From Oscillospiraceae bacterium (GTDB lineage: Bacteria; Bacillota; Clostridia; UBA1381; UMGS1253), in the NCBI GenBank assembly GCA_015068725.1, contig SVKA01000006.1, positions 11,562 through 75,561 of the forward strand: 64,000 nt of DNA. Reading direction: 5' to 3'. Each line of letters opens with the position of its first letter. Position 1 is the first letter of the stretch. A model generated the notes under the pieces. The model saw only the letters and a list, made by a program, of their open reading frames with translations. It was not told the DNA's origin and did no database searches. Position numbers and translations under genes: made by a program. Below, piece after piece: positions 36,107-63,596 of this stretch.

Positions 36107-36188
36107 AATTCAGAGCGTATCCCACTTTTGCAGATGGGATATGTGAGCCTGATAAAGTTTTAATGAAAGAAAGGCTGTGAAAAATAAA

Positions 36189-38282
36189 ATGTCAAAAAAG
36201 CTTGTTATAGTTGAGTCGCCGTCAAAGGCGAAAACAATAAAAAAATACCTTGGCTCGACGTATAGTGTCGAGGCTTCGATGGGACATATTATAGACCTTC
36301 CGAAAAGTCAGATGGGTGTTGATATTGACAAGGATTTCGAGCCGCACTATATCACAATAAGGGGAAAGGGAGAGCTTCTTTCAAAGCTTAAAAAAGAAGC
36401 AAAAGCAGCAGATAAGGTTTATCTTGCAACTGACCCTGACCGCGAGGGTGAGGCTATAAGCTGGCATCTGGCGCATGCGCTTGAGCTTGATGAGAATGTA
36501 GCTTGCCGTGTTACATTTAATGAGATTACAAAGGCTGCGGTGCAAAAGGCTATAAAGGAGCCAAGAAGCATTGACCAAAGCCTTGTTGATGCACAGCAGG
36601 CAAGAAGAGTGCTTGACAGAATTGTTGGTTATAAAATAAGCCCTATTTTGTGGAAAAAGGTTAAAAAGGGTCTCAGCGCAGGCCGTGTGCAATCTGTTGC
36701 AACGCGTCTTATTTGCGACCGCGAAGAAGAAATTGAGGCATTTGTACCACAGGAATACTGGACAATTGTGGCAGAGCTTACAGAGCCAAATTCCAAAAAA
36801 AGCTTTAAGGCGACATATCATGGTAAGGGCAAAAACAAGGTTGAGATAAAAAATGAAAAGGAAGCACTTTCGATATATAATGAGGTAAAGGATGCCGATT
36901 TTATTGTATCGAGCGTAAAAACAAGCGACGTAAAGCGTTCACCTGCGCCGCCGTTTACTACATCAACTATGCAGCAGGAGGCGTCAAGAAAAATAAACTT
37001 CCAGTCAAGAAAAACAATGCAGACGGCGCAGACTCTGTACGAAGGTGTCGATATAAAAGGAATTGGTACTGTCGGACTTATTACGTATATGCGTACCGAC
37101 TCGACACGTATAGCGACAGAGGCACAGTACGCTGCACGTGATTATATTAATGCAAATTATGGCGAAAATTATGCGCCGAAAAGCTTTCGTTACTATAAGA
37201 GCCGTAAAAACGCTCAGGATGCTCACGAGGCAATCAGACCGACAGATGTATCGCTTACACCTGCTCGCATAAAAGAATCGCTTACAAATGACCAATACAA
37301 GCTTTATAAGCTTATCTGGGAGCGTTTTGTGGCAAGTCAGATGAAAGATGCCATTATAGAGTCTACTGCGTGTGATATCGAGGCGAACGGACATATATTT
37401 AAGGCAGCTGGTACAAAAGTAAAGTTTGATGGCTTTATGAAGGTATATATAGAAGGTACAGATACAGAAAAGCAGAAGGAAACAGCACTTCCGTTGCTTA
37501 CAGAAAAAGAAACACTTAAACTGAAAAATATAGAACAAAAACAGCACTTTACACAGCCGCCGGCTCGCTATACAGAGGCAAGCCTTGTAAAGATGCTTGA
37601 AGAAGAGGGCATTGGAAGACCGTCTACGTTTGCACCGACAATTACGACAATTCTTGCACGTGGATATGTTACGCGTGATAAAAAGTCGCTTATACCAACA
37701 GAGCTTGGACGCGTAACCACGCAGCTTTTAAAAGAGAATTTTAAAGATATTGTTGATGTGGATTTTACAGCAAGCATGGAAAGTCAGCTTGACAGCGTTG
37801 AAAGCGGCGATGCAAAGTGGAAGGAAATTATAAAAGAGTTTTATTACCCATTTGCCGAAAGCGTAAAAACCGCAGAAGAAAGCGTAAACCGCATTAAGAT
37901 TGCAGATGAGGTAAGCGACGTTGTGTGTGAAAAGTGCGGACGAATGATGGTTTATAAAATGGGCCGATATGGAAAGTTTTTGGCATGTCCGGGATTTCCA
38001 GAGTGTCGAAATGCAAAGCCTATTGTTATAGAGGCGGGTGTTGATTGCCCGAAATGCGGAAAGAAAGTGCTTGTAAAGAAGAGTAAATCAGGAAGAACAT
38101 ATTACGGCTGCGAGGATAATCCGAAGTGTGATTTTATGACGTGGGATACACCGGTCAAGGACAAACAATGTCCAAAATGCGGCTCGCTGCTTCTTAAGAA
38201 AAATATGCGCGGACCGAAAAAGACAGTTTGTGCAAACGAAAATTGTGATTATGAAACGGGCGGTAAAAAAAGTGAGAGTTAA
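36189..38282 (+). CDS. topA: DNA topoisomerase I
   Basis: [19 protein letters not shown], active-site region YMRTDST and three C-terminal CxxC...CxxC zinc ribbons. The start could instead be GTG 36177. Confidence 0.93.
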
Positions 38283-39576
38283 TGTAATCGGCGCCGGTCT
38301 TGCCGGATGCGAGGCTGCGTGGCAGCTTGCAAACAGAAATGTGCAGGTGCGCCTTTATGAGATGAAACCAAAAAAACATTCACCTGCGCATCACAGCGAC
38401 AATTTTGCCGAGCTTGTGTGCAGTAATTCGCTTCGTTCGGACCAGATTTTTAATGCGGTAGGCCTTTTGAAAGAAGAAATGCGCCATCTTAGCTCTGTTA
38501 TTATAGAGTGTGCTGACAAAACCCGTGTGCCCGCAGGAGGCGCTCTTGCGGTTGACCGCGAGGGCTTTTCGGCTATGATTACCGAAAAAATCAAAGGGCA
38601 TGAAAACATTGAGGTAATAAATGAAGAGGTTAGCCACATAAATGAGGATGAGTATACAATAGTTGCCTCGGGGCCGCTTACGAGCGATGCGCTATCAAAT
38701 GAAATTGCGCGCATTACGGGCACAGAATATCTGCATTTTTTTGATGCTGCGGCGCCACTTGTTACGCGCGAAAGCATTGATATGGAAAATGCGTTTTTTG
38801 CTGCGCGCTATGACAGGGGCGAGGCGGACTATATAAACTGCCCTATGAATAAAGAAGAGTATGAGGCGTTTTACAGAGAGATTATAAATGCAGATACAGC
38901 AGAGCTTAAAGAATTTGAAAATGGCAAGGTGTTTGAAGGATGTATGCCCGTCGAGGTTATGGCATCGCGTGGTATACAGACGCTTCTTTTCGGGCCGTTA
39001 AAGCCCGTTGGAATTACAAATCCAAAGACGGGCAAGGACGATTTTTATGCTGTGATACAGCTTCGTCAGGACAATGCCGATGCAACGCTTTATAATATCG
39101 TAGGCTTTCAGACGCATTTAAAATTTGGCGAGCAAAAACGTGTATTTTCAATGATACCTGCGCTAAAAAATGCAGAGTTTGTGCGTTATGGTGTTATGCA
39201 CAGAAACACATTTTTGAATTCGCCTGACCTTTTAGATAAATATTATCGTTTAAAATCAAATGAGAAAATATATTTTGCAGGTCAGATTACGGGCGTGGAA
39301 GGCTATGTCGAATCAGCCTCATCGGGACTTTTGGCGGGAATAAATTTGTCGCGTGTACTAAGCGGGGATGAGCCGATAGATTTTACGACTAAAACGGCGA
39401 TAGGTGCGCTTTCTAATTACGTTTCAAATCCTACTGTAAATGATTTTCAGCCGATGAATGTAAACTTTGGCATAATAGCTTCGCTTGATGAAAGAATAAA
39501 AAACAAGCGTGAAAGATACGAAAAAATATCTGAGCGCGCACTTTTGACGCTTGATGAAATTGCAAAGAACTTATAA
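38251..39576 (+). CDS. trmFO: Methylenetetrahydrofolate--tRNA-(uracil54-C5)-methyltransferase
   Basis: [21 protein letters not shown] loop and the dprA-topA-trmFO synteny typical of Firmicutes. Overlaps the topA 3' end; the exact start (38230, 38251 or 38272) is uncertain. Confidence 0.9.
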
Positions 39577-40614: not shown

Positions 40615-41457
40615 TTATAAAATTTCGTTAAGCTTTTTTATTGCATCAAGGAACGCAACTTGCTGATTTTCGTATTTATACGGATTGTCAAAGGTTTTGT
40701 CGGTAAGAGAGCTTAAATTATCAAATGTGAGAAGATGCGGCTCGAGTGTGATGATAACATCGCGCTCGTATTCGCTTCTGTATGCCTTTAATATCTCACC
40801 AAGCTTTGCCTCGCCTTTTCCGGGAGGAACGATTGCGCCTGTGCTGAAGCTATCTTTTATATGGAAATACTCGATGTGGTCTTTTAAAAGGTTATATGCA
40901 TGAGGATAAGTTTCGTAGTTATCCAATACAAAGTTTCCTGCATCGAAAACACATTTTAATTTTCCGCCAAATTCATTAAACAAATCAAGGCAACGCTCGG
41001 GGCTTTCGCCGTATATGCCTGCTTCGTTTTCGTGGCAAAGCACAACGTCAAAGTTGCTGGCAGTATCTAAAAGTGCGCCAACCCAATCCATAACCTGCGC
41101 TCTGCAATCATCACGTGTTTTTCCCTTTGGAATATAAAAGCTGAACATTCTTATATTTTTTGTATTTAGCTTTTCGGCAATTGAAAACGTTCTCTTTGCT
41201 TTTTCAAGATGCGCAGCCAAATCGTCTTCAAGGCTTATCTTTCCGAGTGGTGAGCCAAGTGCGGAAAGCGTGATGCCTGTTTTTTCAAGCTTGCTTTTTA
41301 TTTCTGATACATGCTCATCTGTCAAATCCGAAACATTTACTCCGTCTGCAAAGCGAAGCTCGAGCTTTTCAAAATCATTTTGACAAAGCACCTCAAGTTG
41401 TTTATCGATTGATGCATCATATTCGTCTGCAAAACCTGAAAGTATTATTCTGCCCAT
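40615..41457 (-). CDS. Xylose-isomerase-like TIM barrel protein (sugar phosphate isomerase/epimerase family), cassette A gene 3
   Basis: 280 aa with LCHENEAGIYG, VFDAGNF, FHIKD and ITLEPHL patterns. The start is 2 nt from the upstream stop. Confidence 0.75.
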   Translation of the reverse strand: MGRIILSGFADEYDASIDKQLEVLCQNDFEKLELRFADGVNVSDLTDEHVSEIKSKLEKTGITLSALGSPLGKISLEDDLAAHLEKAKRTFSIAEKLNTKNIRMFSFYIPKGKTRDDCRAQVMDWVGALLDTASNFDVVLCHENEAGIYGESPERCLDLFNEFGGKLKCVFDAGNFVLDNYETYPHAYNLLKDHIEYFHIKDSFSTGAIVPPGKGEAKLGEILKAYRSEYERDVIITLEPHLLTFDNLSSLTDKTFDNPYKYENQQVAFLDAIKKLNEIL

Positions 41458-41459
41458 TA

Positions 41460-42329
41460 TCAGTTCACCTCGTATGTATTTACTTTTTCTTCTTTGCCGC
41501 TTATAAGGGCACGATCAAGTGCGTTTAAGATGAATACAGGCTTAATAAAGTCGTATGCACTGCATTCTGACTCGCCACCTGTAAGTACGCTGTAAAATGT
41601 TTGGAATTCACCGTCAAAGCATCCGTCAAGCTTGATTACGCCGCCTTCATTTCCTTTTTCAAAGGCTACTGCACCAAAGTATGCATAGCAGTTGTCTGTA
41701 AACTGTGCGGTTATATCAAACTTTTCATAGCGGAAAACAACGCTTACCGTTCTGTCATTTTTTGTAGCAAGCACAGATTTTATATCATTACCGAAGATTT
41801 GAGTAACCATCTGTACCAAATGCTGTGAGTAAAAATAAAATCCGCCGTATTCATTTTCGAGAGAGATAGGTGCGCGAACATATCCGCCGACAACCTCGCC
41901 AAATTCTTTTTTCTCGATTGCGGCTTTCAATTCTTGAACCTTTTCGGCATATATACACATTGAACCGCCACAAAATCTTACGCCGTTTTCTTTGAATTCG
42001 CGCATCATTTCAATTGCGTCGCTCTCCGATACGGTAATCGGCTTGTCAATAAACATCGGCACGCCCGATTTGATGTATGGCTTTGCGTATTTATAGTGAT
42101 TATCACCGTGTCTTGCGGTTACAACAACGCCGTCAACGTTGCCGATAAGCTCATCATAGCTTTTCATTTTGTAAACGCCAAACTCGCCGCAAAGCTTGTC
42201 AGCGGCTGTGTCATCGTCGCTGTAAATACCTATAACCTGTACGTCTTTGTATGCCTCGTTTTCTTTGATAGTTTTTAAAAACTTGTCTGCGTGTGAATTT
42301 TCACAACCTAATATAACGATTTTATACAT
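41460..42329 (-). CDS. Short Gfo/Idh/MocA-like protein with a degenerate dinucleotide loop, cassette A gene 2
   Basis: 289 aa. ILGCENSHADKF instead of GxGxxG, and FIDKP instead of EKP. Confidence 0.7.
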   Translation of the reverse strand: MYKIVILGCENSHADKFLKTIKENEAYKDVQVIGIYSDDDTAADKLCGEFGVYKMKSYDELIGNVDGVVVTARHGDNHYKYAKPYIKSGVPMFIDKPITVSESDAIEMMREFKENGVRFCGGSMCIYAEKVQELKAAIEKKEFGEVVGGYVRAPISLENEYGGFYFYSQHLVQMVTQIFGNDIKSVLATKNDRTVSVVFRYEKFDITAQFTDNCYAYFGAVAFEKGNEGGVIKLDGCFDGEFQTFYSVLTGGESECSAYDFIKPVFILNALDRALISGKEEKVNTYEVN

Positions 42330-42347
42330 ATTATAGCCTCCTTGTGA

Positions 42348-43430
42348 TTAATAAATTAGCGGCAACGGATTTTCTGCGTGCAGCTGCTCGATTGCACCGA
42401 CAATCATCGTTGCATTTTCAGGCTCGATATACATCTTTTTGCCCTCGGTCAATTTAAAGTATAGCTCTTTGTAAAGTGTAGCAGTTCCGACATCAAACGC
42501 TGTGCCCGTAAACTCCGTGCTTTCTTCGTGGATAATCAGATTATCCTTGCAGTAAGCCGGTACACCGTTTTCATCCTTCATACTTTCAAAAATTACGCTG
42601 CGCTCGGTGTTTTCACCATCTTTGATATATTTTACTTCGCATTTTTCGGCAGTTGCTTTAAGGCCGCCCTTTGAGCCCTGAATCTTTACATTATAATTGG
42701 AAAATGCATCGGCAGAGCTTATCTCGATATCAACAAGAGGTTTGTTTGGTGCGCTGATAAGCATTTTGACATAATCTTCGGCGTCGCCGCTCGAAAGCTC
42801 TGTCTTTGCAAGACGTGAATATACAACCTTTGCAGCTTTATCAAAATCAAGAAGACCATATGCAATACCGATTGGATGCGGACCTGTGTTGTATGCGTTT
42901 CCGGCAAGCTTTTTTTGAAGCGTCTGCCAGTCCCAGCGACGTGCAAAGCCACTAAAACGGATGCTGATTTGCTCGATTTTTCCAAATATGCCCGATTCAA
43001 TCTTTTCTTTTATATACTGATAATATGGGGCATAAAATGTCTGCTGAAATACCGACAAAACTACGTCGTTATCCTTTGCGGTTTTTATCAAATCCTTGCA
43101 CTCATATCTGTTGCGTGCCATAGGCTTTTCAACGAGAACGTTGAATTTGTGCTCCAAAAATTCTTTTGTAATGTTGTAATGAGTTTCGCTGTATGTAGAA
43201 TTTACAACCAAATCGATGTCCTTTTTGTCAAACAATCCCTTGTAGTCAGAAAGCACCTCGCAGCCCGGATAACGAGTGAGCGCCTCCTCTCTTAATGCCG
43301 CATCATTTTCTACAACATAGCGCACGTTGTAATAAATGTTGTCGTCGCTGATATAATATTTACCGTGAATGTTGCGTCCGCTTCTGCCCTGACCAATTAT
43401 GGCGAGGTTAAGCTTTTTTATTTCTGCCAT
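42348..43430 (-). CDS. Gfo/Idh/MocA family oxidoreductase, cassette A gene 1
   Basis: 360 aa with LAIIGQGRSGRNIH Rossmann loop and VLVEKPMARN motif. Confidence 0.82.
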   Translation of the reverse strand: MAEIKKLNLAIIGQGRSGRNIHGKYYISDDNIYYNVRYVVENDAALREEALTRYPGCEVLSDYKGLFDKKDIDLVVNSTYSETHYNITKEFLEHKFNVLVEKPMARNRYECKDLIKTAKDNDVVLSVFQQTFYAPYYQYIKEKIESGIFGKIEQISIRFSGFARRWDWQTLQKKLAGNAYNTGPHPIGIAYGLLDFDKAAKVVYSRLAKTELSSGDAEDYVKMLISAPNKPLVDIEISSADAFSNYNVKIQGSKGGLKATAEKCEVKYIKDGENTERSVIFESMKDENGVPAYCKDNLIIHEESTEFTGTAFDVGTATLYKELYFKLTEGKKMYIEPENATMIVGAIEQLHAENPLPLIY

Positions 43431-43559: not shown

Positions 43560-43623
43560 CAGCCTTGACGTGAGGTTTTGTTTGTGTTATTTTAAAAGAA
43601 AATTGTGTGGGGGGGATAATGTG

Positions 43624-44502
43624 ATGGAAAAATTTAATGCCAGGATGCCGGGTATTATAAAAAATAAATACAGAATAACTAAAAACTGGTTCAAAACACC
43701 ACTTGAGCTCAACGAAAACGCCCTTTTGCAGATAGGGGCAACATATTTTAATGAATATACCCACATTACGCCTCACAGTCATACGAATTTTTACGAGCTG
43801 ACATACATAAAGGATGGCGAGGGAAGCGTTATAATAAACAACGTTGAGGTGAAAGTGAAAAAAGATGATATATGTCTTACGATGCCGTATGACAAGCACG
43901 AAATCGTTTCGTCAAAGGACAATCTTTTAGAAATTTTCAACCTTGCATTTATTGTGTCAAATACAGACTTTGTGCGTCAGTTAAATCAGATTTGCCATAG
44001 CTTTCATGCGCCTGAAAAACGTATATTTTCAGACAACAATATTGTTTATTTGATAGGACTTATGCTAAATGAGGTGCATAGTGATGAAGAAAATCAACGG
44101 TTGATGCTTTCTTCTTTGCTTGATAGTATAATTCTTTATCTTATGCGTAATTTTAGACCGAAAAGCGATAAAAAAAGCCTTGGTAACATAACCGAGCACG
44201 AAATTTTGTGCTATCAGATTATGAATTATATTGATACAAATATTTTAAATCTTAAAAATTTAAATGAGCTTGCCGAGCTTACGAATTACAGTTATCCGTA
44301 TCTGTCGCTTGTGTTCAAAAATACGACCAATATGACGCTTAAAGAATATTTTATGAATGCAAAATTTGAAAAAGCACGCAAGCTGCTATTTGAGGAGCAT
44401 ATCAGTGTGAATAAGGTTTCGCAGATGCTTAATTATTCATCTGCCAATGCTTTTACAAAGGCATATAAAAACAAATTTGGCACTTCGCCAACGAAAAACT
44501 GA
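43624..44502 (+). CDS. AraC family transcriptional regulator (cupin-like N-domain plus HTH)
   Basis: C-terminal AraC HTH (LNELAELTNYSYPYLSLVFK...FTKAYKNKFGTSP). ATG 8 nt after GGGGGGG. Confidence 0.85.
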   Translation: MEKFNARMPGIIKNKYRITKNWFKTPLELNENALLQIGATYFNEYTHITPHSHTNFYELTYIKDGEGSVIINNVEVKVKKDDICLTMPYDKHEIVSSKDNLLEIFNLAFIVSNTDFVRQLNQICHSFHAPEKRIFSDNNIVYLIGLMLNEVHSDEENQRLMLSSLLDSIILYLMRNFRPKSDKKSLGNITEHEILCYQIMNYIDTNILNLKNLNELAELTNYSYPYLSLVFKNTTNMTLKEYFMNAKFEKARKLLFEEHISVNKVSQMLNYSSANAFTKAYKNKFGTSPTKN

Positions 44503-44555: not shown

Positions 44556-45503
44556 TTAGTTACACTCTGCAACGAGCGGTCCTTCAAGGTCTTTAAGATA
44601 GAAAAGCTTGCCCGGAAGAGTCGGGATAAAGCTTGATGTAATCCACTTATCAGGACCATAACGAAGTGTCATCCAGAAGCTCATACCTTGCCATTGCATA
44701 CCTCTGTTAAACGCACCATCTGCACCGCCGATTGCATAATCAGCCTGCAAGAACAAGCCAGGTCCGATTGTGTTAGCACGGCACGGAACGAGTGTTGTAC
44801 GAGATTTGAAGCTTGTGATAGCGTTCTGCTCGATTGTAAGCGGATGAAGCTTTGCGCCGATTCTGTAGCATTCCTTCTTCCAGTCCTCTACGCTGTTGTA
44901 CTCACCTGCAAACTGCGGCTCCCAGAAAGCGATATGGCACATTCTGCCTATTCCGTAAACGAGGATAAGCTTTACGCCTTCTGCTTTAAGCTTTGCAATC
45001 TTTTCAGGATATGTAGGAAGGTTTTCTTTTGTTGCAAAGTTTCTCTGTGATGGAGGAACTGTCAACTCGCCGAGAGGATTAAAGAGTGCATCGCACATTG
45101 CATTCTGAAATGCAGCCGGGTCATTTGACGGAAGTGTGTTACCATCAGCATCTGACCACTCGTCCATATTGAATGTGTAAACGTGGTCGCACTTTACATT
45201 CCACTGCTTAAGGAAATAAACAGCCCACTTATACATACCCATAGGACCAACAGGCAAAATGAAAGCAATCTTTTCGCCGTTATCGCGTGCGTTCTTTATT
45301 GCAAGCGCGATTTCGTGGCCCATATATGTATCAAATTCTCCAAGAGTATCACATTTTATAGGTGTGAAATCCTTGTGCCAGAAGCTCTGTCTGTCCTCTA
45401 CCTTGTTTTCGGGATTGCAGCATGCATCAATTTTCTCCATATCCCAACCTGCGGGATAAAAGCCTTCAAGAAGTGAACCTTTTACTGTACTGTTAAAATC
45501 CAT
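44556..45503 (-). CDS. NagB/6-phosphogluconolactonase-fold sugar-phosphate isomerase/deaminase-like protein
   Basis: FNMDEW and [13 protein letters not shown] correspond to NagB FNLDEY and GIGxDGHIAFNEP. It has a ~60-aa N-terminal extension. Confidence 0.7.
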
Positions 45504-45516
45504 TTTTTATTCCTCC

Positions 45517-46461
45517 TTATTTGTTTAACGATTTACGAACCTCTTTAACTACGAGGTCAACGATAGCCTGCATTTTGCTGTCGTCAAGAGTGCTCTGTGA
45601 AAGCGAACCCTTATCAACACTTGAGAAAAGTTCCATCTTTGCGATTGTTTCTTGCTTTACAGCCTCAACTGCTGCGGGAATAAGGTCGATAATACCCTTG
45701 TTCATATCAGTAAACTTGCTAAACTCAGCCTTTACTGCGGCAATGTTGATATCGGTAAAGATGTTAACCTTGCTGATACCTTCTTTTATAGCACGTCTGA
45801 AATCGTCATCAGTAAGACCTGAACCACCGTGCAAAACGAGCGGAACATTTACTGTGTTTGCGATTGTCTTGATTCTCTCAAAATCGAGTTTTGGCGGAAG
45901 CTTGTATGCACCGTGAGCATTACCTACTGCGATTGCAAGAGCATCCACCTTTGTCTTTTCAACATAATCTTTTGCAAGCTTGGGGTCTGTGAAGAATTTG
46001 CTCGGGTCTTCAAGATGGCTGCTGCCTTCTGCCGAACCCTCGTTATCACCTACATGACCAAGCTCGCCCTCGATTGTTGCGCCGTATGAATGGGCAATCT
46101 CTGCCATTTCTTTTACTTTCTTTACGTTTGTGTCATAGTCATCTGTTGAGCAGTCATACATAATTGATGTAAAACCAAGCTCAAGTGCTTTAAGACAGGT
46201 TTCCTTTCGAAGACCATGGTCAAGATGAATAACTACCGGAACTCTTGCTTTTTTAGCCATCGGAAGAAGATAATACGATACCTCTTCAAGCGGACCGTAC
46301 GGGAAAAGCACTTCTGCTGTACCCATAATTACGGGAGAATTTGTTTTCTCTGCCGCAGCGATTATACCCCTTGCAAGCTCCATATTTACAGCGTTGAAAA
46401 GACCAACTGCGTATTTACCTTGCTTTGCCGGGATAAGTACTTGATTTAGATTTACTAACAT
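45517..46461 (-). CDS. Class II ketose-bisphosphate aldolase (FBA / tagatose-bisphosphate aldolase family)
   Basis: HLDHG, EGELGHVG, VGNAHG and LVLHGGSG motifs. Confidence 0.85.
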   Translation of the reverse strand: MLVNLNQVLIPAKQGKYAVGLFNAVNMELARGIIAAAEKTNSPVIMGTAEVLFPYGPLEEVSYYLLPMAKKARVPVVIHLDHGLRKETCLKALELGFTSIMYDCSTDDYDTNVKKVKEMAEIAHSYGATIEGELGHVGDNEGSAEGSSHLEDPSKFFTDPKLAKDYVEKTKVDALAIAVGNAHGAYKLPPKLDFERIKTIANTVNVPLVLHGGSGLTDDDFRRAIKEGISKVNIFTDINIAAVKAEFSKFTDMNKGIIDLIPAAVEAVKQETIAKMELFSSVDKGSLSQSTLDDSKMQAIVDLVVKEVRKSLNK

Positions 46462-53060: not shown

Positions 53061-54446
53061 TTAAATGCTGTAGTCTTTAAGATACTCCTTTGTATTTTCT
53101 ACCATTTCATCAAAAAGCGTGCGTGCTTGGTCAATCGGAATGTCAACCTGCTGTATAAATGCGTTGAAAATTACATCAAGATTTCTTTCGGCAACGCCTT
53201 TATCAATCATTTCCTGAACGCCGACAACTTTTGAAATAAGCGGGTAAATACTCTCTGGGAGATTTCCTGCCAAAACAGGTACTACCGAGTCATCCGAGAA
53301 AACAGCGTTTGTTTCTACCACCGCTCCGTAGGGAAGGTTTGGAATCTGACCAACGTTTGGGATATTTACATTAGTAACCAAGTCTTCAAGTCCCAAAAGT
53401 GCACGAATCTGCTTTACGCCATCTTCGCCTGTTTCCTGAAATTCGAATTTTTCCTCGCCCGAAACAAGTCTTTGGCTTTTTTCAATTCTGCCTGCAAGCT
53501 TTTCTTTTCGAAATGATACGGGTGTAAGAGCAAAGAGCCAGCTTGTTGCACACTCGGGGCTTGCGAGATACCACTTTGGCGGGCAAAATTCTGCCAAATG
53601 TCTGTCACCTGCGGCAGCGATAAAGCCGAAACGCTTAAACAAATCAAACTTGATTTTGTGTCCTGTATAGAAGAAGCTGTTTAGCCAGTTATCATCTCTG
53701 CCATCGTTAAAACCATTTTCGTAATATTTTTCTATAAATTGAGCGTAAACAGGCATAACGTCAATATCTTTATACTTTGCCTCTGTAAGCCATGTAAAGT
53801 GGTTTACGCCCGTAACATTTACCTTGATTTCTTCTCTTGACGGTTTTTCGATTCCCAATATATCTTCAAGAGCCTGAGCGAGAAGCTTTTGTGTGCCGAA
53901 AACCTCGTGGCAGCAGCCAAATGCTTTGATTTCAGGGAATACTCTGTAAAGAGTTTTGATGCAAAGCGTCATAGGGTTTGTATAGTTGATAATCCACGCC
54001 TTTGGGCAGTATTCTTTGATTGCTTCGCCGATAACTTCGTACATAGGAATAGTACGCATCGCACGGATTGTGCCGCCCGGGCCGTATGTATCGCCTACGG
54101 ACTGATAAATGCCGTATTTTTCAGGTGCGTGAACATCAGAGTCCATTTCGTCAAATGTTCCTGGAAGAATAGAGATGATGACAAAGTTTGCTCCATCAAG
54201 AGCTTCGCCGATAGTTTCAACTGCTTTGTAATTCCAAACGGATTTGCAACCTTCTACATCTTTGATTTTGTTTCCAATAATTTCGTTTGCCTTTGCTGCA
54301 TCATAATTGATGTCGTAAAGGTATACATCGCCCGATATATCGTCAGCTGTACTAAGGTCTGACATAAGTCCCCATGCCCATCCTTGTGAGCCGCCGCCAA
54401 TATAGGCAATTTTAATGTCTTCGACTTTGTTGTTTACATATTTCAT
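53061..54446 (-). CDS. Glycoside hydrolase family 4 (NAD+/Mn2+-dependent; LplD/alpha-galacturonidase-like by N-terminus and context)
   Basis: IKIAYIGGGSQGWAWGLMSDL Rossmann N-terminus, INYTNPM and GCCHEV motifs. Confidence 0.8.
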   Translation of the reverse strand: MKYVNNKVEDIKIAYIGGGSQGWAWGLMSDLSTADDISGDVYLYDINYDAAKANEIIGNKIKDVEGCKSVWNYKAVETIGEALDGANFVIISILPGTFDEMDSDVHAPEKYGIYQSVGDTYGPGGTIRAMRTIPMYEVIGEAIKEYCPKAWIINYTNPMTLCIKTLYRVFPEIKAFGCCHEVFGTQKLLAQALEDILGIEKPSREEIKVNVTGVNHFTWLTEAKYKDIDVMPVYAQFIEKYYENGFNDGRDDNWLNSFFYTGHKIKFDLFKRFGFIAAAGDRHLAEFCPPKWYLASPECATSWLFALTPVSFRKEKLAGRIEKSQRLVSGEEKFEFQETGEDGVKQIRALLGLEDLVTNVNIPNVGQIPNLPYGAVVETNAVFSDDSVVPVLAGNLPESIYPLISKVVGVQEMIDKGVAERNLDVIFNAFIQQVDIPIDQARTLFDEMVENTKEYLKDYSI

Positions 54447-54463
54447 AAATAATCCCTCTTTTT

Positions 54464-55831
54464 TTATAATGTAACCCCATCTTTGAAGATGGAAATTTCT
54501 TCGTATCCGTTTTCCTCGTTTTTGGCTTTTTTGCCGTTTGCTACTTCGATGACGTACTCGAAAAGCTCATCTGTCAAATCATTTCCTTCTATTGCACTAC
54601 CTGCATCAAAATCAATCCAGTTTTGTTTCTTTTGAGCCAGTGCGCTGTTGGTTGAAATTTTTACCGTGGGAACTGCCGTTCCAAGAGGTGTTCCGCGCCC
54701 CGTTGTAAAGAGTATCATATGCACTCCTGCCGCCATAAGATTTGTAACGGCTACGATATCATTTCCGGGTCCGGTAAGAAGTGAAAGCCCTTGTTTTGTT
54801 ACCTTATCGCCATATGATAAAACATCAGTAATTGTCGAGCTGCCGCCTTTTTGTATGCAGCCGAGCGATTTTTCTTCAAGAGTTGTTATGCCACCGGCTT
54901 TATTTCCGGGAGAAGGATTTTCGTATATAACCTGATTATGTCTTTCGTAATAATCCTTAAAATCGTTTATAAGGGCAACCGTTTTGTCAAACATTTCCCT
55001 GCTTTCGCATCTGTTCATAAGCAGATGCTCGGCGCCAAACATTTCTGGCACTTCCGTAAGCACACAGCTGCCGCCAAAGCCTGTGAGCATATCGCAAAAG
55101 CGTCCGACCAAAGGGTTTGCGGTTATTCCCGAAAAGCCATCACTTCCGCCGCATTTAAGACCGATTTTAAGCTTTGATACGTGAACAGGCTCGCGTTTTG
55201 CCTTTTTAGCATGCTCTTTAAGCTCGTTTATAAGGCGCACGCCCTCTTCAAGTTCGTCTTCTACATCCTGGGTATTTAAAAATTTTACATGCTCCTCATC
55301 ATAAGAGCCTAAAACCTTTTTAAACTCCTCAATATTGTTGTTTTCGCAGCCAAGTCCCAGCACCAAAACTCCACCACAGTTTGGATGAAAAACCATACCC
55401 GAAAGAATTTGTTGGGTTGTTTTCTGGTCATCGCCAAGCTGTGAACAACCAAACGGGTGAGGAAAGGACTTTGCCCCCGTTTTTGAGGCGAGCTTTTCGG
55501 CAATTTTGTTGACACATCCAACGGTATTGATAATCCATATATCGTTTCTTATGCCGACCGAGCCGTCCTTGCGAACATATCCCATAAATGTTTTGTCGGT
55601 TTTGGCTGTGTTGTCAGTAAGTTCGGGAGCGTATGTATATTCGATTTTTCCCGAAAGGTTAGTTTTCAGGTTGTGAGTGTGAACATGCTCGCCTTTTTTG
55701 ATATCACAAGTAGCGTGGCCAATGGGATTTCCGTATTTTATAACGTTCTGCCCGCATTTTATATCACAAATTGCATATTTGTGTCCTGTTTCTATGTTGA
55801 CTTCTACGTTATCCTTTTTATTTATTAACAT
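54464..55831 (-). CDS. uxaA: Altronate dehydratase
   Basis: SAF N-domain (DNVEV...GHKYAICDIKCGQNVIKYG.PIG.A...I.KGEHVHTHN) plus a large UxaA/GarD C-domain. Start taken at ATG 55831, overlapping the uxaB stop by 14 nt; the ORF-track start at 55906 lies inside uxaB. Confidence 0.88.
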   Translation of the reverse strand: MLINKKDNVEVNIETGHKYAICDIKCGQNVIKYGNPIGHATCDIKKGEHVHTHNLKTNLSGKIEYTYAPELTDNTAKTDKTFMGYVRKDGSVGIRNDIWIINTVGCVNKIAEKLASKTGAKSFPHPFGCSQLGDDQKTTQQILSGMVFHPNCGGVLVLGLGCENNNIEEFKKVLGSYDEEHVKFLNTQDVEDELEEGVRLINELKEHAKKAKREPVHVSKLKIGLKCGGSDGFSGITANPLVGRFCDMLTGFGGSCVLTEVPEMFGAEHLLMNRCESREMFDKTVALINDFKDYYERHNQVIYENPSPGNKAGGITTLEEKSLGCIQKGGSSTITDVLSYGDKVTKQGLSLLTGPGNDIVAVTNLMAAGVHMILFTTGRGTPLGTAVPTVKISTNSALAQKKQNWIDFDAGSAIEGNDLTDELFEYVIEVANGKKAKNEENGYEEISIFKDGVTL

Positions 55832-57083
55832 ATTTTTCAATCTCGCTTTCAAGCCATGAAAGGTCTTCGTCCCATAGCTGTGTATTTTTAAGTATCTCCG
55901 AAACACTTGCCGTTTTCATAAACGCACAGATTTTTTCATCGTCGTTTGCCATATCTGTTCTGTAAAAATCGATCAGCTTTGCAAAAGAGAAGATCAAAGC
56001 TTCGGGCATTTTGTTAAAGCGTTTTACATACTCGCTTATTGACGGAAGAACACGCACCTTGAATTTGCTTACCGAATTGAGTGCGATAGATGACCAATAA
56101 TGCTTAATATGAGGATTTTCAAAACGTGTTATAACATTATTTGCATACTCTATAAGCTCGTCCTTTGGCAAATCGAGTGTTGGGATTATTTCGTCAAATA
56201 TACATTTTTCCAAATGCTCGCGCATTTTTTTGTCATCGACGCACGATTTTACCGTATCAAAGCCGGACAAAAGTGCGTAACCTACAAGAGATGTGTGTGC
56301 ACCGTTTAGTATGCGCACCTTTCTTGTGCGATACATTTCAAGATTGTCTGTTACGATTACGTTAAGACCACACTTGTCAAACGGAATTTCGTCGCACAAA
56401 CCAAGATAACCCTCAATAACCCACAAATGAAAATACTCGGATGTATTTATAAGATTATCCCATGAAGAAAACTCGAAGGTTTCACCCTTTGGAAAGCCCG
56501 GGTTTATGCGGTCAACAAGAGTGTTTGTGAAAATGTTTTCCTCTTCAATCCATTTTTTGAAGTCAGCGCTAAGGTTCCAAAGATCTGCATATTTGAGAAC
56601 GCAGCTTTTTAAAAGTGCTCCGTTTTTGTCTGTAAGCTCGCACGGCAAAAATACAAAGCCGTCAAGTCCTTTTTCAAAACGCTTTACCAAAAGCTGTGTA
56701 AGCTTGCCGGGAAAAGTGCTTGCCGGACGGTCTGTTATTTTGTCATTTTCATCAAAGCAAATGCCTGCCTCAGTAGTATTTGAAACGATAAAACGAAAAT
56801 CGGGATTGTTTGCCAAATCAAGATATGATTCGAAGTCGTCATATGGCTTTACGCACCTTGAAATTACATCAATTTTTTTAATATCTACGCCTTCTTTACC
56901 GCGGCAGATATGAGTGTACTCGCAATTCTGACTTGTGAGCATATCGCACATTCCGTTCTTTATGGGCTGAACCACGCAAACCTTTCCGTCAAAATCGGTT
57001 TTTTCATTTACGGTTTGCAGCATCCAGTCAACAAAGCCTCTTAAAAAACCACCTTCGCCAAACTGTATAATTTTTTCTGCCAT
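55818..57083 (-). CDS. uxaB: Tagaturonate reductase (altronate oxidoreductase), mannitol dehydrogenase family
   Basis: IIQFGEGGFLRGFVDWM N-terminus and NGAHTSL motif. ATG 8 nt after GCGAGG. Confidence 0.85.
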   Translation of the reverse strand: MAEKIIQFGEGGFLRGFVDWMLQTVNEKTDFDGKVCVVQPIKNGMCDMLTSQNCEYTHICRGKEGVDIKKIDVISRCVKPYDDFESYLDLANNPDFRFIVSNTTEAGICFDENDKITDRPASTFPGKLTQLLVKRFEKGLDGFVFLPCELTDKNGALLKSCVLKYADLWNLSADFKKWIEEENIFTNTLVDRINPGFPKGETFEFSSWDNLINTSEYFHLWVIEGYLGLCDEIPFDKCGLNVIVTDNLEMYRTRKVRILNGAHTSLVGYALLSGFDTVKSCVDDKKMREHLEKCIFDEIIPTLDLPKDELIEYANNVITRFENPHIKHYWSSIALNSVSKFKVRVLPSISEYVKRFNKMPEALIFSFAKLIDFYRTDMANDDEKICAFMKTASVSEILKNTQLWDEDLSWLESEIEKYVNK

Positions 57084-57182
57084 TTTTATTGCCTCGCTTT
57101 CAAAATATTTATTCACAGTTTAATTATATATCAAAAAATTAGTGTATACCTTAAAATTTTTGACTAATTAATCGAAAAAATC

Positions 57183-58090: not shown

Positions 58091-58107
58091 AAGAGAGGAT
58101 TTTGATT

Positions 58108-58854
58108 ATGAAACTTTATACTTTGGGAACAAGCCATGGAGCAACAGAAAAGGGACGTTCTTGTTCTGTGAACTTACTTGAGGTGGGCGATGCGTATTAT
58201 TTGTTTGATTGCGGTGGTTGTGTCGAGGAGAGAATGACTGACCTTGATTTGCCGATGCAGAACATAAAAGGCGTTTTTATATCACATATGCACTCGGATC
58301 ATGTGACTAATTTGCCGTCGGTAATAAAAAGACTTGTAAGATATAACAAAAGTAAAAATGAGGAACTGACGCAGAAGATATTTATGCCTGAACAACGTGG
58401 CATAGATGCTATTAATATATGGATGGACGCAACTCACAGAAACGAGAACGACAATAGATTTTATTCTTTTGAGCTTACTTTGCCGGGAGTGGTTTATTCT
58501 GATGAAAATATAACCGTTACGGCAATAGAAACACACCACGTTGAAAACGGAAAATATCCGAGCTATGCCTATATGGTTGAGGCAGAGGGTAAGAGCTTTT
58601 TCTATACAGGCGATTTGGCATACGATTTTCATGATTATCCAAAAATTCTTTCGGAAAAAGAATTTGATGCGGTGCTTTGCGAGCTTGTGCATTTTGATAT
58701 TGATGCCAATTTTGAAACGCTTAAAAATACAAAAACAAAGCATCTTATATTTACTCACGGCTATCCGAAGAAAATCGCGCAAATGGAGCCACGTCTTAGC
58801 GAATTTCCTTTCCCGGTTACGATTACAAATGAATGTGATGTTTACGAGATATGA
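58108..58854 (+). CDS. MBL-fold metallo-hydrolase
   Basis: HMHSDH motif and later His/Asp ligands. ATG 9 nt after AGAGAGGA. Confidence 0.75.
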   Translation: MKLYTLGTSHGATEKGRSCSVNLLEVGDAYYLFDCGGCVEERMTDLDLPMQNIKGVFISHMHSDHVTNLPSVIKRLVRYNKSKNEELTQKIFMPEQRGIDAINIWMDATHRNENDNRFYSFELTLPGVVYSDENITVTAIETHHVENGKYPSYAYMVEAEGKSFFYTGDLAYDFHDYPKILSEKEFDAVLCELVHFDIDANFETLKNTKTKHLIFTHGYPKKIAQMEPRLSEFPFPVTITNECDVYEI

Positions 58855-58894
58855 TGTAAAATTTTGTGTGTGAAAATCTTTGGAGGAGGGCGCT

Positions 58895-59707
58895 ATGCGA
58901 TATAACAAATTCCCTGAAAGTGATCCGTTTTATTTTGACCGGCGCAGCTATTTGAAAAAGCGTGGCTCTGCTCCGGGCCCAAGGCACTATCATAACTTTT
59001 TTGAGGTATATTATATCGAAAATGGTTATTGTAATTATTTTATCGACAATAAAGCGTACAAGCTTGAAGAGGGCGATCTGGTGCTTATTCCCGAGGGTAT
59101 TATACATAATACTCTGTACTGGGAAAACAGTGAATCAACAAGACTTCTTATCAACTGCACAAGAAAATATATTCCAAAGTCGGCAGAGTTTATATTTGCA
59201 AAAAAGAATTACTTTTATCGAAACAGGGGTATAAAAGAAAAGCTTTATGAGCTATTATTAAAAATTGAGGCAGAATATAATAATCCTGACGAATTTTCTG
59301 ACGATTTAATAAAGAGCTATATGACAACTTTCTTTATGCTGATGGCACGAAACGAAAATGAATACAGCGAGAAAAATTCCAAGACGGGATATATACAAAG
59401 TGCCATTGATTATATTCAGGAAAATCTGTCCGAGGAAATATCACTTCAGGATATGGCAAACCGTTTTTCTGTAAGCAGAGAGCATTTTTCGAGAAGGTTT
59501 AAAAAGGAAACGGGCTTTGGATTTTGTGATTATGTAAACCTGTTGCGTATGAAAAAAGCAGAAACTCTGTTAAAGCAGATGGATAACATATCAGTGGCAA
59601 AGGTTGCGACACAGTGTGGTTTTTCGGATAGCAACTACTTTTCGGTAAAATTTAAAAAGATGTATAATATTTCTCCGAAAGCCGTTCAAAAAATGTCAAG
59701 AGAATAA
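58895..59707 (+). CDS. AraC family transcriptional regulator (cupin plus HTH), first of a tandem pair
   Basis: ATG after GGAGGAGGG. The C-terminus LQDMANRFSVSREHFSRRFKK...FSDSNYFSVKFKKMYNISP is an AraC HTH. Confidence 0.85.
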   Translation: MRYNKFPESDPFYFDRRSYLKKRGSAPGPRHYHNFFEVYYIENGYCNYFIDNKAYKLEEGDLVLIPEGIIHNTLYWENSESTRLLINCTRKYIPKSAEFIFAKKNYFYRNRGIKEKLYELLLKIEAEYNNPDEFSDDLIKSYMTTFFMLMARNENEYSEKNSKTGYIQSAIDYIQENLSEEISLQDMANRFSVSREHFSRRFKKETGFGFCDYVNLLRMKKAETLLKQMDNISVAKVATQCGFSDSNYFSVKFKKMYNISPKAVQKMSRE

Positions 59708-59722: not shown

Positions 59723-60580
59723 ATGGAATTTTCGAGCAGAGTATTTTTGTATGACTATCTTGTGTCTGACAATAAAATAGTTATTCCTGCAGGTGAGCTT
59801 TTCCAGGTGTCTGAGCTTTCGGTTATTCGCGGAGGTGAAATAGCGGAGCATGTGCAGCAGTGCGACGAAATTACATATGCTGTGTCGGGAAGTGCAAAGT
59901 TTTATTCGGATGACCATGTAGAGGATGTGTCGGGCGGACAGATACACTTTATAAAAAAAGGCATGAAACATAAAATTGTTGCGTCCGAGAACTCGAATTT
60001 TCGTTATATATGTATAGGTTTTAACGCAAATCAGGACTGTGCGGATATAAAAGCTTTTTTTAAGATGAGAGATAAGACCGATTGGTTTGTTAAAAACGAT
60101 GACGGAAGCATAAAGCGCCTTACAGAACTTCTTTTAAATGAATTCTATATGGAGGATGAGCAAAAAAATATAATGATAAATCTGTATCTTTCACAGATTT
60201 TAATTTCTGTTGCCCGTATTTACAGAGGAAATATAAGTTATATTGACAAAAAAAGTACGTCAACCTCCAACTATGCTGTTTATAAAGCGCTAAGGTATAT
60301 TGACAGAGAATATATGTATATAACAAGCGTTAAAAATGTGGCAAAGGAGCTTTCGTACAGTGAGTATTATCTTTCTCATGCTTTTTCCGAGAAGGTGGGT
60401 ATGAGTATAAAAGAGTACATAACCAAAAAGAAGCTTCAGGCTGCAGCAGGTATGCTTAAAACAACAAATCTTGGCATAAATGAAATATCGGATTATCTCA
60501 ATTTCAGCACACAGCATACTTTCAGGCAGGCATTTAAAAGAATGTATATGATGAGCCCGAGCGAGTATCGCACGAAATGA
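59723..60580 (+). CDS. AraC family transcriptional regulator (cupin plus HTH), second of a tandem pair
   Basis: ATG after AGGAGG. The C-terminus VAKELSYSEYYLSHAFSEKVG...FSTQHTFRQAFKRMYMMSPSEY is an AraC HTH. Confidence 0.85.
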   Translation: MEFSSRVFLYDYLVSDNKIVIPAGELFQVSELSVIRGGEIAEHVQQCDEITYAVSGSAKFYSDDHVEDVSGGQIHFIKKGMKHKIVASENSNFRYICIGFNANQDCADIKAFFKMRDKTDWFVKNDDGSIKRLTELLLNEFYMEDEQKNIMINLYLSQILISVARIYRGNISYIDKKSTSTSNYAVYKALRYIDREYMYITSVKNVAKELSYSEYYLSHAFSEKVGMSIKEYITKKKLQAAAGMLKTTNLGINEISDYLNFSTQHTFRQAFKRMYMMSPSEYRTK

Positions 60581-60676: not shown

Positions 60677-61738
60677 ATGAAAATAGCTGTTATTGGATGC
60701 GGTACGATTGCAAACAAGCGTCATATACCATCATATTTGCAAAATGACAAGGTAGAGATTAAGTATTTTTGCGACATTATACTAGAAAGAGCGCAAAAAG
60801 CGGTCGAGGATTATGGATGCGGCACAGCAGTTGCCGATTATAAAGAGGTGCTTGCTGACAAAGAAATCGAGGCGATTTCTGTTTGTACTCCCAATCACAT
60901 GCACTCGGTTATTACAATAGATGCTCTTAAAGCCGGCAAGAACGTTCTTTGTGAAAAGCCTGCTGCAAGAACATATGCTGAGGCGCTTGAAATGCAAAAA
61001 GCGCAGCATGAAACAGGTAAAGTGTTAAATATCGGCGTGGTTAACCGCTTTAATGCAGGTATCAGACAAATCAAAAAGCTTATTGATGAGGGAGAGCTTG
61101 GCGAGGTTTATCAGGTTTATGTAAGCTTCAGAGCACACAGAAGCATCCCCGGCCTTGGCGGTGATTTTACAAATATAGCTGTTGCGGGCGGCGGTGTTAC
61201 AATCGACTGGGGCGTACACTTTTTTGATATAGTTATGTATTGCTGTGGCGATCCTGAGGTAAAAACAGTTTCGGCAGAAAAATTCTGCAAGCTTGGCAAT
61301 CCTATGGAAGAGTACGTTTATACATCAATGTGGGCAGGACCGCCGACATTTGATGGTGTGTGCGATGTTGAAGAGGGTGTAACAGGTATGATAAGAACAA
61401 ATGGCCCTGTTATTACATTTAATGGTGCATGGGCACAAAACATTGGTGAGGATGAAATGTTTATTGACTTTATCGGAACCAAAGGTGGCATAAGACTCCA
61501 TTACACAAAGGATTTTGTTTTCTATTCAACAAAGAATGGTATGCTTACAAAAACAACCTTTAAGATGAATGAAGGAATGGATATGGAGGCTATGTTTAAA
61601 AACGAGATAAATGCTTTTGTAGATTGTATTGAAAGCAAAGAAAAGCTTCCATCACACATTGACATAAACATCCTTACATCAAAGATGATGGATGCGATTT
61701 ATCGCTCGGCAGAAACGCATAAGGAAATTGAGTTTTAA
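60677..61738 (+). CDS. Gfo/Idh/MocA family oxidoreductase, cassette B gene 1
   Basis: 353 aa with KIAVIGCGTIANKRH Rossmann loop and VLCEKPAART motif. Confidence 0.85.
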   Translation: MKIAVIGCGTIANKRHIPSYLQNDKVEIKYFCDIILERAQKAVEDYGCGTAVADYKEVLADKEIEAISVCTPNHMHSVITIDALKAGKNVLCEKPAARTYAEALEMQKAQHETGKVLNIGVVNRFNAGIRQIKKLIDEGELGEVYQVYVSFRAHRSIPGLGGDFTNIAVAGGGVTIDWGVHFFDIVMYCCGDPEVKTVSAEKFCKLGNPMEEYVYTSMWAGPPTFDGVCDVEEGVTGMIRTNGPVITFNGAWAQNIGEDEMFIDFIGTKGGIRLHYTKDFVFYSTKNGMLTKTTFKMNEGMDMEAMFKNEINAFVDCIESKEKLPSHIDINILTSKMMDAIYRSAETHKEIEF

Positions 61739-63554: not shown

Positions 63555-63561
63555 AAACAAG

Positions 63562-63596
63562 CACCTGTATACGATATTTGTATACAGGTGTTTTTT
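63562..63596 (+). terminator. Terminator after cassette B
   Basis: CACCTGTATA...TATACAGGTG followed by TTTTTT. Confidence 0.8.

Follow-up and report, generated by a model that had tools for sequence, protein, structure and literature searches.

Two diverged gene cassettes of an Oscillospiraceae bacterium encode compact Gfo-like proteins, possibly a new enzyme or pseudoenzyme family inside a known pathway logic

Stepwise cleavage of glycosides by oxidation, elimination and hydration has been described for the BT2156-BT2160 and AL1-AL4 systems and for the Gram-positive system P2B11, whose TIM barrels are metal-dependent 3-keto-glycoside lyases or hydratases (Nasseri et al., 10.1101/2024.03.25.586180). 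An Agrobacterium operon (GlycDH, AtOGE, AtHYD and Gfo) oxidises, eliminates, hydrates and reduces (PMC10628242), and in the DgpABC system the C-glycoside 3''-oxidase DgpA, acting at the sugar C3, is followed by a metal-dependent lyase; DgpA holds nicotinamide adenine dinucleotide (NAD) tightly, and 3-oxo-glucose serves as the hydride acceptor (10.1101/816074). Here we analyse two three-gene cassettes from a 64,000-nt stretch (the window) of contig SVKA01000006.1 of an Oscillospiraceae bacterium (assembly GCA_015068725.1). Each encodes a canonical full-length Gfo/Idh/MocA dehydrogenase (G1 in cassette 1 and G2 in cassette 2), a compact Gfo-like protein (S1, S2) and a xylose-isomerase-like TIM barrel (T1, T2). 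We propose, with a probability of about 0.45, that these cassettes are new variants of the keto-sugar pathways that oxidise, enolise (i.e. eliminate, hydrate or epimerise) and reduce, and that S acts in them without canonical NAD binding.

With BT2156-BT2160, AL1-AL4 and P2B11 the cassettes share the combination of Gfo/Idh/MocA dehydrogenases with TIM barrels (named "sugar phosphate isomerase" in those systems), the presence of two Gfo-type genes and an occurrence in gut bacteria; P2B11, like the cassettes, is devoid of DUF1080 and of a nearby transporter. However, the second oxidoreductases of the described systems, AL4 (41 kDa), BT2159 (44 kDa) and P2B11-Oxido2 (40.6 kDa), are canonical full-length proteins, whereas S is a loop-less protein of 32 kDa. 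Oxido2 of P2B11 (Nasseri et al.) was considered as a potential S-type protein and rejected because of this size and its GxG-containing N-terminus (MIVGMG). Moreover, each cassette has one TIM barrel, and its relatives often none, versus two in BT2156-BT2160, AL1-AL4 and P2B11. G1 and G2 score 44-62 bits with the models of BT_2158 and BT_2159 (NF058561, NF058563; cut-offs of 650-750), and the match of G2 to P2B11-Oxi1 reaches only 2e-12. As regards DgpA-DgpBC (strain PUE) and DfgE-DfgAB, the shared component is G2, which is homologous to DgpA (7xr9) over its full length (residues 1-348, 9.2e-56, 193 bits); at this bit score it appears to be a distant paralogue of DgpA and not an orthologue. There is no pair in the cassette comparable to the heteromeric DgpB/DgpC lyase (T2 gave no match at E<=0.01), and dgpABC, in turn, has no counterpart of S.

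A similar logic is known from other routes. The levoglucosan enzymes LgdA, LgdB1, LgdB2 and LgdC oxidise, eliminate, hydrate and reduce with the use of a TIM-barrel lyase/hydratase, while YcjQ-YcjR-YcjS (the glucoside-guloside pathway of E. coli) and IolG/IolW/IolI/IolE combine two dehydrogenases with a TIM barrel acting on a keto intermediate. Weak matches of T2 to YcjR and IolI were obtained, as was a match of T1 to IolI, but the second Ycj dehydrogenase is of the zinc-dependent alcohol dehydrogenase type and both Iol dehydrogenases are canonical Gfo enzymes, S being neither. Scores with the inositol models are low (TIGR04380, IolG: G2 134 and G1 61 versus 355 bits; TIGR04379, IolE: T2 32 versus 290 bits), as are those of the cassette proteins with the levoglucosan dehydrogenase model (44-105 bits, cut-off 650). 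The reductases of the Lgd and Agrobacterium pathways are NADH-dependent canonical Gfo enzymes, unlike S. Catabolism through NagA and NagB is linked with S1 relatives, but neither gene adjoins cassette 1 in the window. As anticipated in the original prediction, which was made from the nucleotide sequence alone, the cassettes thus fall outside the characterised pathways: all six proteins remained far below the cut-offs of the NCBIfam equivalog models, and no solved structure is more than 19% identical to an S protein. They would work like stepwise keto-sugar systems, yet differ from each specific one in the features by which its members are recognised.

The component that sets the cassettes apart is S. 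It had been regarded as a degenerate Gfo subunit; we found instead two strongly constrained families with invariant family-specific motifs and predicted complete folds. The search with S1 yielded 2693 relatives, of which the top 120 share a length of about 288 aa and are 50-94% identical to it, and a scan of one genome per species detected S1 relatives in 448 species-level genomes. The best 80 S1 loci, many of them from gut or rumen samples, are labelled Clostridia or Bacillota, with the exception of one record titled Acidiphilium sp. CAG:727. For S2 we obtained 2709 relatives, mostly with no Pfam match (the top 120 at 64-97% identity), located on at least 393 metagenome contigs; 247 cluster representatives (50% identity clusters) among 1.84 billion were matched at E<=1e-30. 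Mean column identity in the sampled alignments is 64% for S1 and 74% for S2. Among co-located orthologues, the mean pairwise identity of S1 (0.53) is lower than that of G1 (0.60) and T1 (0.58), and that of S2 (0.52) is lower than that of G2 (0.68). These values suggest that S evolves somewhat faster than its neighbours, yet clearly under purifying selection.

The motifs named in the original prediction, i.e. an intact glycine loop and EKP in G, and DKP or DKT with no glycine loop in S, can be read directly in the open reading frames (ORFs). G1 carries IIGQGRSG (loop GQGRSG) and VEKP, while G2 carries VIGCGTIA (loop GCGTIA), CEKP and GGGVTIDWGVH, the last comprising a full GGX3DX3H motif, whose Asp we read as replaced by Asn in G1. 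S1 contains ILGCENSHADKF and FIDKP, and S2 contains GFIDYYLDEFHANNY and YVDKT. Residues of S1 were equated with those of G2 by profile alignment. The glycine loop of G2 (G-C-G-T-I-A) corresponds to an invariant G-C-E-N-S-H-A in S1, the second Gly being changed to Glu10 and His13 being inserted, and the beta2 Asp corresponds to invariant Ser37, followed by a variable residue (D, E, H, N or Y). The TPNxxH segment of G2 is represented by TARHGDNH, in which His78 is kept and two residues are new, the invariant Arg73 and a His74 that is nearly invariant. The change from EKP to DKP in S1 and DKT in S2 leaves the Lys invariant (Lys96 in S1), the Glu being replaced by an invariant Asp. In S1 the Asn position of the canonical "NRF" motif varies, and the GGX3D segment is deleted together with the catalytic Asp, while the catalytic His is kept as His170 in YSQH. 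The complete set of invariant residues of S1 comprises E10, N11, H13, T71, R73, H78, D95, K96, P97 and H170. In S2 the loop (DYYLDEWHAN) is glycine-free and two residues longer, the Asp position of GGX3DX3(H/Y) is not conserved, and the His is kept (YSIH163). S1 and S2 therefore do not carry the glycine loop, the acidic beta2 residue and the GGX3D motif of the Gfo family, but retain its fold and its Lys.

This fold is supported by AlphaFold2 models, which predict complete two-domain Gfo structures of high confidence (predicted local distance difference test 93.0 for S1 and 92.5 for S2). In full-length Foldseek comparisons S1 and S2 gave TM-scores of 0.76-0.87 to inositol dehydrogenases, 1,5-anhydro-D-fructose reductase and GenD2; the identities were at most 19% for S1 (TM 0.8-0.87, inositol dehydrogenases) and at most 17% for S2 (GenD2 and inositol dehydrogenases). 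No close solved structure was found for either family, the best sequence match being DgpA (5e-8, N-terminal domain only). PF01408 is recognised with 54.8 bits in S1 and with 26.2 bits in S2, the latter just above the cut-off of 24 (E 1.4e-5). The GenBank names differ: S1 (MBE7026462.1) is called "Gfo/Idh/MocA family oxidoreductase" and S2 (MBE7026479.1) "hypothetical protein". The two S proteins share the positions HAN, H, SG, DK, S and YSxH and align by hhalign over 247 columns (score 68.7, E 3e-9), while S2 aligns with G1 or G2 over fewer than 100 N-terminal columns (scores <=46); S1 is about equally close to G1 (77.7) and to S2 by profile. We tentatively read this as one divergent "short" lineage in which S2 would be the more derived member. 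It is well known that the dinucleotide cleft of canonical Gfo enzymes is lined by the beta1-alphaA loop, the beta4-alpha4 loop and the EKP strand; since the invariant polar residues of S occupy these elements, they most likely line a rebuilt cleft, and we infer that S does not bind NAD(P) in the canonical way. Our literature searches, whose coverage was incomplete and some of whose queries were poorly matched, revealed neither a paper nor a structure in which a protein of the S type is described, and nothing relevant on loop-less, heteromeric or NagA/NagB-linked Gfo proteins.

The genomic context of S was surveyed in the 80 best S1 loci (one genome per species) and in 80 S2 metagenome loci, with neighbours counted by tblastn (orthologue thresholds of >=38% identity and >=60% coverage). 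An orthologue of G1 lies directly upstream of S1 in 49 of 75 loci and within 8 kb in 66; the corresponding values for G2 and S2 are 39 and 42 of 58. When contexts were picked via G2 instead of S2, the S2 orthologue was found immediately downstream in all three cases, and one of these contexts was a bare G2-S2-AraC unit amid housekeeping genes. The stop and start codons of G and S often overlap. In contrast, T directly follows S in 35 of 76 S1 loci (46%) and in 13 of 63 S2 loci (21%), the exact G-S-T order occurs in 25 of 71 and 10 of 52 loci, respectively, and neither G nor T is found near S in 7 of 71 and 11 of 52. The neighbour counts and the three contexts picked via G2 identify the G-S pair as the conserved core, with T as a frequent but facultative third member. 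The idea of a conserved three-gene module is therefore upheld as far as co-occurrence across the 160 loci is concerned, but it has to be narrowed to the pair, T being present in 21-46% of cases.

This survey also settles whether the two G-S-T runs of the window are a mere coincidence of abundant genes with no functional module behind them. Genes of the Gfo and PF01261 types are indeed abundant, since the window has a third TIM barrel and related loci hold additional Gfo genes, and the first three contexts inspected (P0109, P0014 and P0016) showed S1 alone, so that the cassette initially seemed not to be conserved. This view was reversed by the 80-genome survey: the orthologue-level synteny in 160 independent loci and the contexts picked via G2 contradict a chance arrangement, which we regard as hardly credible. 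The G-S-T order exceeds chance because it is a family-typical trait of each S family elsewhere.

The neighbourhood of the G-S pair differs between the two families. The commonest S1 architecture consists of a divergent AraC gene followed by G1-S1-T1-NagB-like-NagA; of the 76 S1 loci, 52 have the divergent AraC-like gene (in most cases two genes upstream of S1), 34 the NagB-like gene (252 aa) and 35 NagA (about 382 aa). The NagA proteins exceed the TIGR00221 cut-off (247 versus 226 bits), whereas the NagB-like protein falls below that of NagB (118 versus 237 bits), and no kinase or phosphotransferase system is linked. Variants exist: in one, a 326-aa canonical Gfo enzyme precedes S1 and G1 is placed further downstream; in another, a Gfo-like protein of about 320 aa whose loop reads GFRHSH takes the place of T1 and precedes a canonical Gfo enzyme of 340 aa. 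This loop-less replacement of T1, which we call S3 (L011:8937-9917), has the N-terminus MNIAFAGFRHSHI in place of GxGxxG and was also found in L013, L017, L018, L021, L026, L029, L030, L048, L052, L072, L077 and L080; it stands directly after S1 where T1 is absent, usually with the canonical 340-aa enzyme behind it. S3 was considered as a third S family and rejected, because profile comparison places it nearer to canonical Gfo enzymes than to S1 and S2, and it retains CDKP and GGTINDIAIHG, i.e. the canonical Lys, Asp and His. The neighbours of S2 comprise sugar ABC transporter genes, AraC or response-regulator-AraC genes, GH88, ADP-ribosylglycohydrolase and a PF12831 flavin adenine dinucleotide (FAD) oxidoreductase; AraC genes recur beside G2-S2, and in L154, L159 and L160 S2 is followed directly by a separate PF12831 gene.

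Several relatives appear to be fusions: T2-S2 (566 aa, L149:5995-7695), S1-NagB-like (544 aa, L047:8001-9635), and S2 joined to a PF12831 FAD oxidoreductase (740 aa) or to a PD40/oligogalacturonate-lyase-like propeller (643 aa; P0254 and P0287). A fusion of G with S was not seen among them.

G1 and G2 contain PF01408, PF22725 and PF02894, and the nearest solved relatives of G1 are 3fhl, RgNanOx and YjhC (1e-14 to 3e-17). PF01261, and with it the xylose-isomerase-like TIM barrel assigned to the third gene in the original prediction, is present in both T1 and T2, and each has a conserved metal-ligand pattern (E143, D172, H199 and E239 in T1; E144, D170, H197 and E260 in T2). In profile searches of the PDB, T1 matched Art22 (2e-10), AsbF (8e-8) and IolI (3e-3), and T2 matched 3tva (2e-29), Art22 (1e-13), UlaE (4e-8) and, weakly, YcjR (6wn6, 6e-3); one unidentified "sugar phosphate isomerase" entry also gave a weak match with T2. 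Nothing relevant on Art22 was found in the literature. AsbF is a 3-dehydroshikimate dehydratase, acting on a 3-keto cyclitol, YcjR is a 3-keto-glucoside 4-epimerase, and AsbF, IolI, UlaE and YcjR all enolise next to a carbonyl group with the aid of a metal. Judging from these similarities, T1 and T2 look like metal-dependent enzymes of keto substrates.

We propose that each cassette is an AraC-controlled sugar-catabolic module operating through a keto-sugar intermediate. G, an NAD-type enzyme, would oxidise a ring hydroxyl of the substrate, most likely at C3 by analogy, and the resulting ketone would acidify the neighbouring C-H bonds. The metal-dependent T, together with S, would then carry out non-redox steps of the enolisation type (beta-elimination of the aglycone, glycal hydration, epimerisation or isomerisation), after which the ketone would be re-reduced, probably by NADH kept on G as in DgpA. 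S itself would be a distinct, conserved, enzyme-like derivative of the Gfo fold, which may act on the keto intermediate of its partner with no canonical use of NAD(P), because the sugar-facing Lys and His are kept and the former dinucleotide cleft appears to have been remodelled by Glu, Asn, His and Arg residues that are invariant. Moreover, since T is often missing beside the G-S pair, S probably contributes a reaction of which G is not capable; in the T-less loci this is taken to be elimination, hydration or epimerisation. The general logic of oxidation followed by the action of a TIM barrel had already been put forward in the original prediction, and it is still the most reasonable frame, given that G2 is a full-length homologue of DgpA and that T1 and T2 keep the E-D-H-E pattern. 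A bolder proposal, that S1 and S2 form a new class of Gfo-fold enzymes whose former NAD cleft has turned into a catalytic site for keto sugars (cofactor-independent, possibly metal-assisted lyases, hydratases or epimerases) and that G and S together make up a minimal two-protein non-Koshland glycosidase or sugar epimerase that is widespread in gut Clostridia, is possible but rather doubtful.

As for the substrates, inositols and C-glycosyl flavonoids had been suggested as candidates; for cassette 1 the NagB-like and NagA neighbours point to an amino sugar instead. Because relatives of this cassette feed into NagA and NagB-like enzymes (and the S1-NagB-like fusion joins S to one of them), its substrate is probably a sugar or glycoside of the N-acetyl-hexosamine type. 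That of cassette 2 is probably an imported glycoside or oligosaccharide, as suggested by the ABC transporters and by the DgpA-like G2.

A number of observations weigh against the pathway proposed above. That the glycine motif is gone suggests, but does not prove, that NAD binding is lost, and 1,5-anhydro-D-fructose reductase tolerates Ser at the position of the second Gly. The tight adjacency of G and S, often with overlapping stop and start codons, fits a heteromer equally well. T1 and T2 have no significant match to the characterised 3-keto-glycoside lyases (DgpB/C and AtOGE, searched by PDB names). There is neither NagA nor a close NagB-like gene in the window, in which cassette 1 is a minimal G1-S1-T1 unit, and each of the fusions was encountered once only, in a metagenome assembly or in a gene call made on one. 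Finally, a redox role of S has a precedent in the characterised systems, where a canonical reductase of only minor effect in vitro serves as the second Gfo protein (10.1101/2024.03.25.586180).

If this precedent is followed, S would be a reductase or dehydrogenase of keto sugars that depends on NAD(P)H and has an unorthodox cofactor loop, comparable to BT2159/AL4, LgdC or the Agrobacterium Gfo, or else a partner of opposite stereochemistry producing a net epimerisation, as is the case for the paired dehydrogenases IolG and IolW. In the characterised keto-sugar operons an oxidising Gfo protein is accompanied by a reducing one, S has preserved its Rossmann topology along with the catalytic His and the Lys of EKP, and S1 still reaches 54.8 bits with PF01408. 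However, the replacement of the second Gly by Glu, the inserted His, the change of the beta2 Asp to Ser and the deletion of the catalytic Asp segment in S1 speak against such a function, as does a loop devoid of any glycine in S2; the negatively charged residues among those following Ser37 argue against NADP, and the only Gram-positive "Oxido2" studied so far is not of the S type. We therefore consider a reductase unlikely. We are similarly sceptical about S being a non-catalytic pseudoenzyme subunit that forms a heterodimer with G via the C-terminal beta-sheet, by which enzymes of the Gfo family oligomerise, and tunes its specificity, stability or gating. The canonical NAD contacts appear to be lost in S, while the whole C-terminal sheet domain is retained in the models, and the position of G directly upstream in about two thirds of loci and in all three G2 contexts, with frequent overlaps, would suit such a complex. 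There is also a correlation between the pairwise identities of G and those of S (r 0.64-0.87), which could, however, reflect mere co-inheritance. The loop that gates an active site in AL3 and P2B11-Oxi1 comes from the other subunit (10.1101/2024.03.25.586180). On the other hand, the invariant residues of S map to predicted cleft positions and not obviously to an interface, S also occurs with no G within 8 kb in 10-20% of loci, and its fusion partners are T, NagB-like and FAD oxidoreductase proteins. Taking into account the Lys and His, the invariant residues of the putative cleft and the partners other than G, we favour an enzymatic or ligand-binding role of S over a purely structural one.

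Gal80p is a transcriptional regulator with a Gfo fold, and S could by analogy be a non-enzymatic sensor reporting a pathway intermediate to AraC or to G. In most loci an AraC gene is found with S, and one family has it immediately after S2 in the same operon. Nevertheless, the AraC proteins found here carry a cupin ligand domain of their own, the fusion partners of S are enzymes and not DNA-binding proteins, and S shows no similarity to Gal80 beyond the family fold, which makes a sensor function very improbable.

The gene layout of the window (Table 1) agrees with the original prediction for all six ORFs, which have the same order and similar sizes in the two cassettes and lie on opposite strands. 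In cassette 1, T1 starts 2 nt past the S1 stop codon. AraC regulators are located beside both loci, and no transporter or kinase adjoins either of them in the window, as had also been stated. The AraC gene divergent from G1 is the likely regulator of cassette 1; in L088 and L090 the position orthologous to the AraC genes of cassette 2 is annotated HTH_AraC and HTH_18. The divergence assumed for the two cassettes is evident from pairwise alignments, which give 25% identity for G1/G2 (153 aa), 21% for S1/S2 (182 aa) and 24% for T1/T2 (157 aa), so that at the sequence level the cassettes appear related as members of the same families only.

Table 1. Cassette genes and other features of the window (positions in the window)
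Feature	Position	Strand	Description
G1	42348-43430	minus	360 aa; canonical full-length Gfo/Idh/MocA dehydrogenase, cassette 1
S1	41460-42329	minus	289 aa; compact Gfo-like protein; PF01408 only
T1	40615-41457	minus	280 aa; xylose-isomerase-like TIM barrel; PF01261
AraC-family regulator, cassette 1	43570-44502	plus	divergent from G1; Pfam HTH_18, HTH_AraC, AraC_binding
G2	60677-61738	plus	353 aa; canonical Gfo/Idh/MocA dehydrogenase, cassette 2
S2	61834-62676	plus	280 aa; compact Gfo-like protein; PF01408 only
T2	62697-63554	plus	285 aa; xylose-isomerase-like TIM barrel; PF01261
Two tandem AraC-family genes	58880-59707, 59723-60580	plus	directly upstream of G2
Intrinsic-terminator-like hairpin	63559-63593	plus	16-bp stem and T run; closes cassette-2 operon
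Third TIM barrel	10051-10866	minus	271 aa; xylose-isomerase-like; PF01261, 6e-30
Topoisomerase I	36177-38282		listed ORF
GIDA/TrmFO-like gene	38230-39576		listed ORF; GTG start
Remote NagB-like gene	44556-45503	minus	315 aa; no Pfam match; TIGR00502, E 7e-11
Operon with remote NagB-like gene	44556-46461	minus	convergent to cassette-1 AraC
GH4 region	53061-57116	minus	GH4 glycosidase adjoining UxaA-like and mannitol-dehydrogenase-family genes
MBL-fold gene	58102-58854		metallo-beta-lactamase (MBL) fold
Extra segment relative to L090	51943-59707		about 8 kb

Near cassette 1, the remote NagB-like gene forms an operon with a gene for a class-II ketose-bisphosphate aldolase; together, the two genes possibly constitute a diverged module for amino sugars or ketose phosphates. 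The environment of cassette 2 can be compared with that in L090 (GCA_045592745.1), whose G2 and S2 are 97% identical to the window copies and in which mntP is directly followed by AraC-G2-S2-T2. The window has an additional segment at this position, containing genes for PGA_cap, GH4, altronate/galactarate dehydratase, a mannitol-dehydrogenase-family protein, a haloacid dehalogenase (HAD) protein, an MBL protein and a second AraC; the gene following T2 is also different, being a Mn catalase gene in L090. This segment is a variable sugar-gene island beside cassette 2. Its MBL-fold gene was considered as a member of the cassette, given that an MBL gene is placed between S2 and T2 in L089, but the two are not specifically related (E 0.013). 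The GH4 family itself cleaves glycosides through NAD- and Mn-dependent oxidation and elimination, and the GH4 gene of the island is thus a second, classical case of keto-sugar chemistry in the window. The third TIM barrel stands alone beside a 1339-aa ORF and an RNase J gene, with no Gfo partner near. The listed ORFs of topoisomerase I and the GIDA/TrmFO-like protein overlap by 53 nt (38230-38282), and the true start of the latter is probably further downstream.

It is only lately that keto-sugar routes, whose substrates are drugs, glucosinolates and C-glycosides, have come to be seen as a general alternative to classical glycosidases among bacteria of the gut. S is a conserved component contained in none of the characterised systems of this kind, and possibly represents a new enzyme or pseudoenzyme family inside a known pathway logic. 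Its role would be either a new catalytic activity in a very large superfamily or that of a pseudoenzyme partner controlling a sugar dehydrogenase. The question is directly testable, since candidate substrates can be purchased and S is a small protein for which good folding is predicted; once answered, it would improve the annotation of genes listed in gut metagenomes as "hypothetical" or as generic "oxidoreductase". If S does constitute a new class of enzymes, the S1 branch would be a new entry route of amino sugars into the NagA/NagB pathway.

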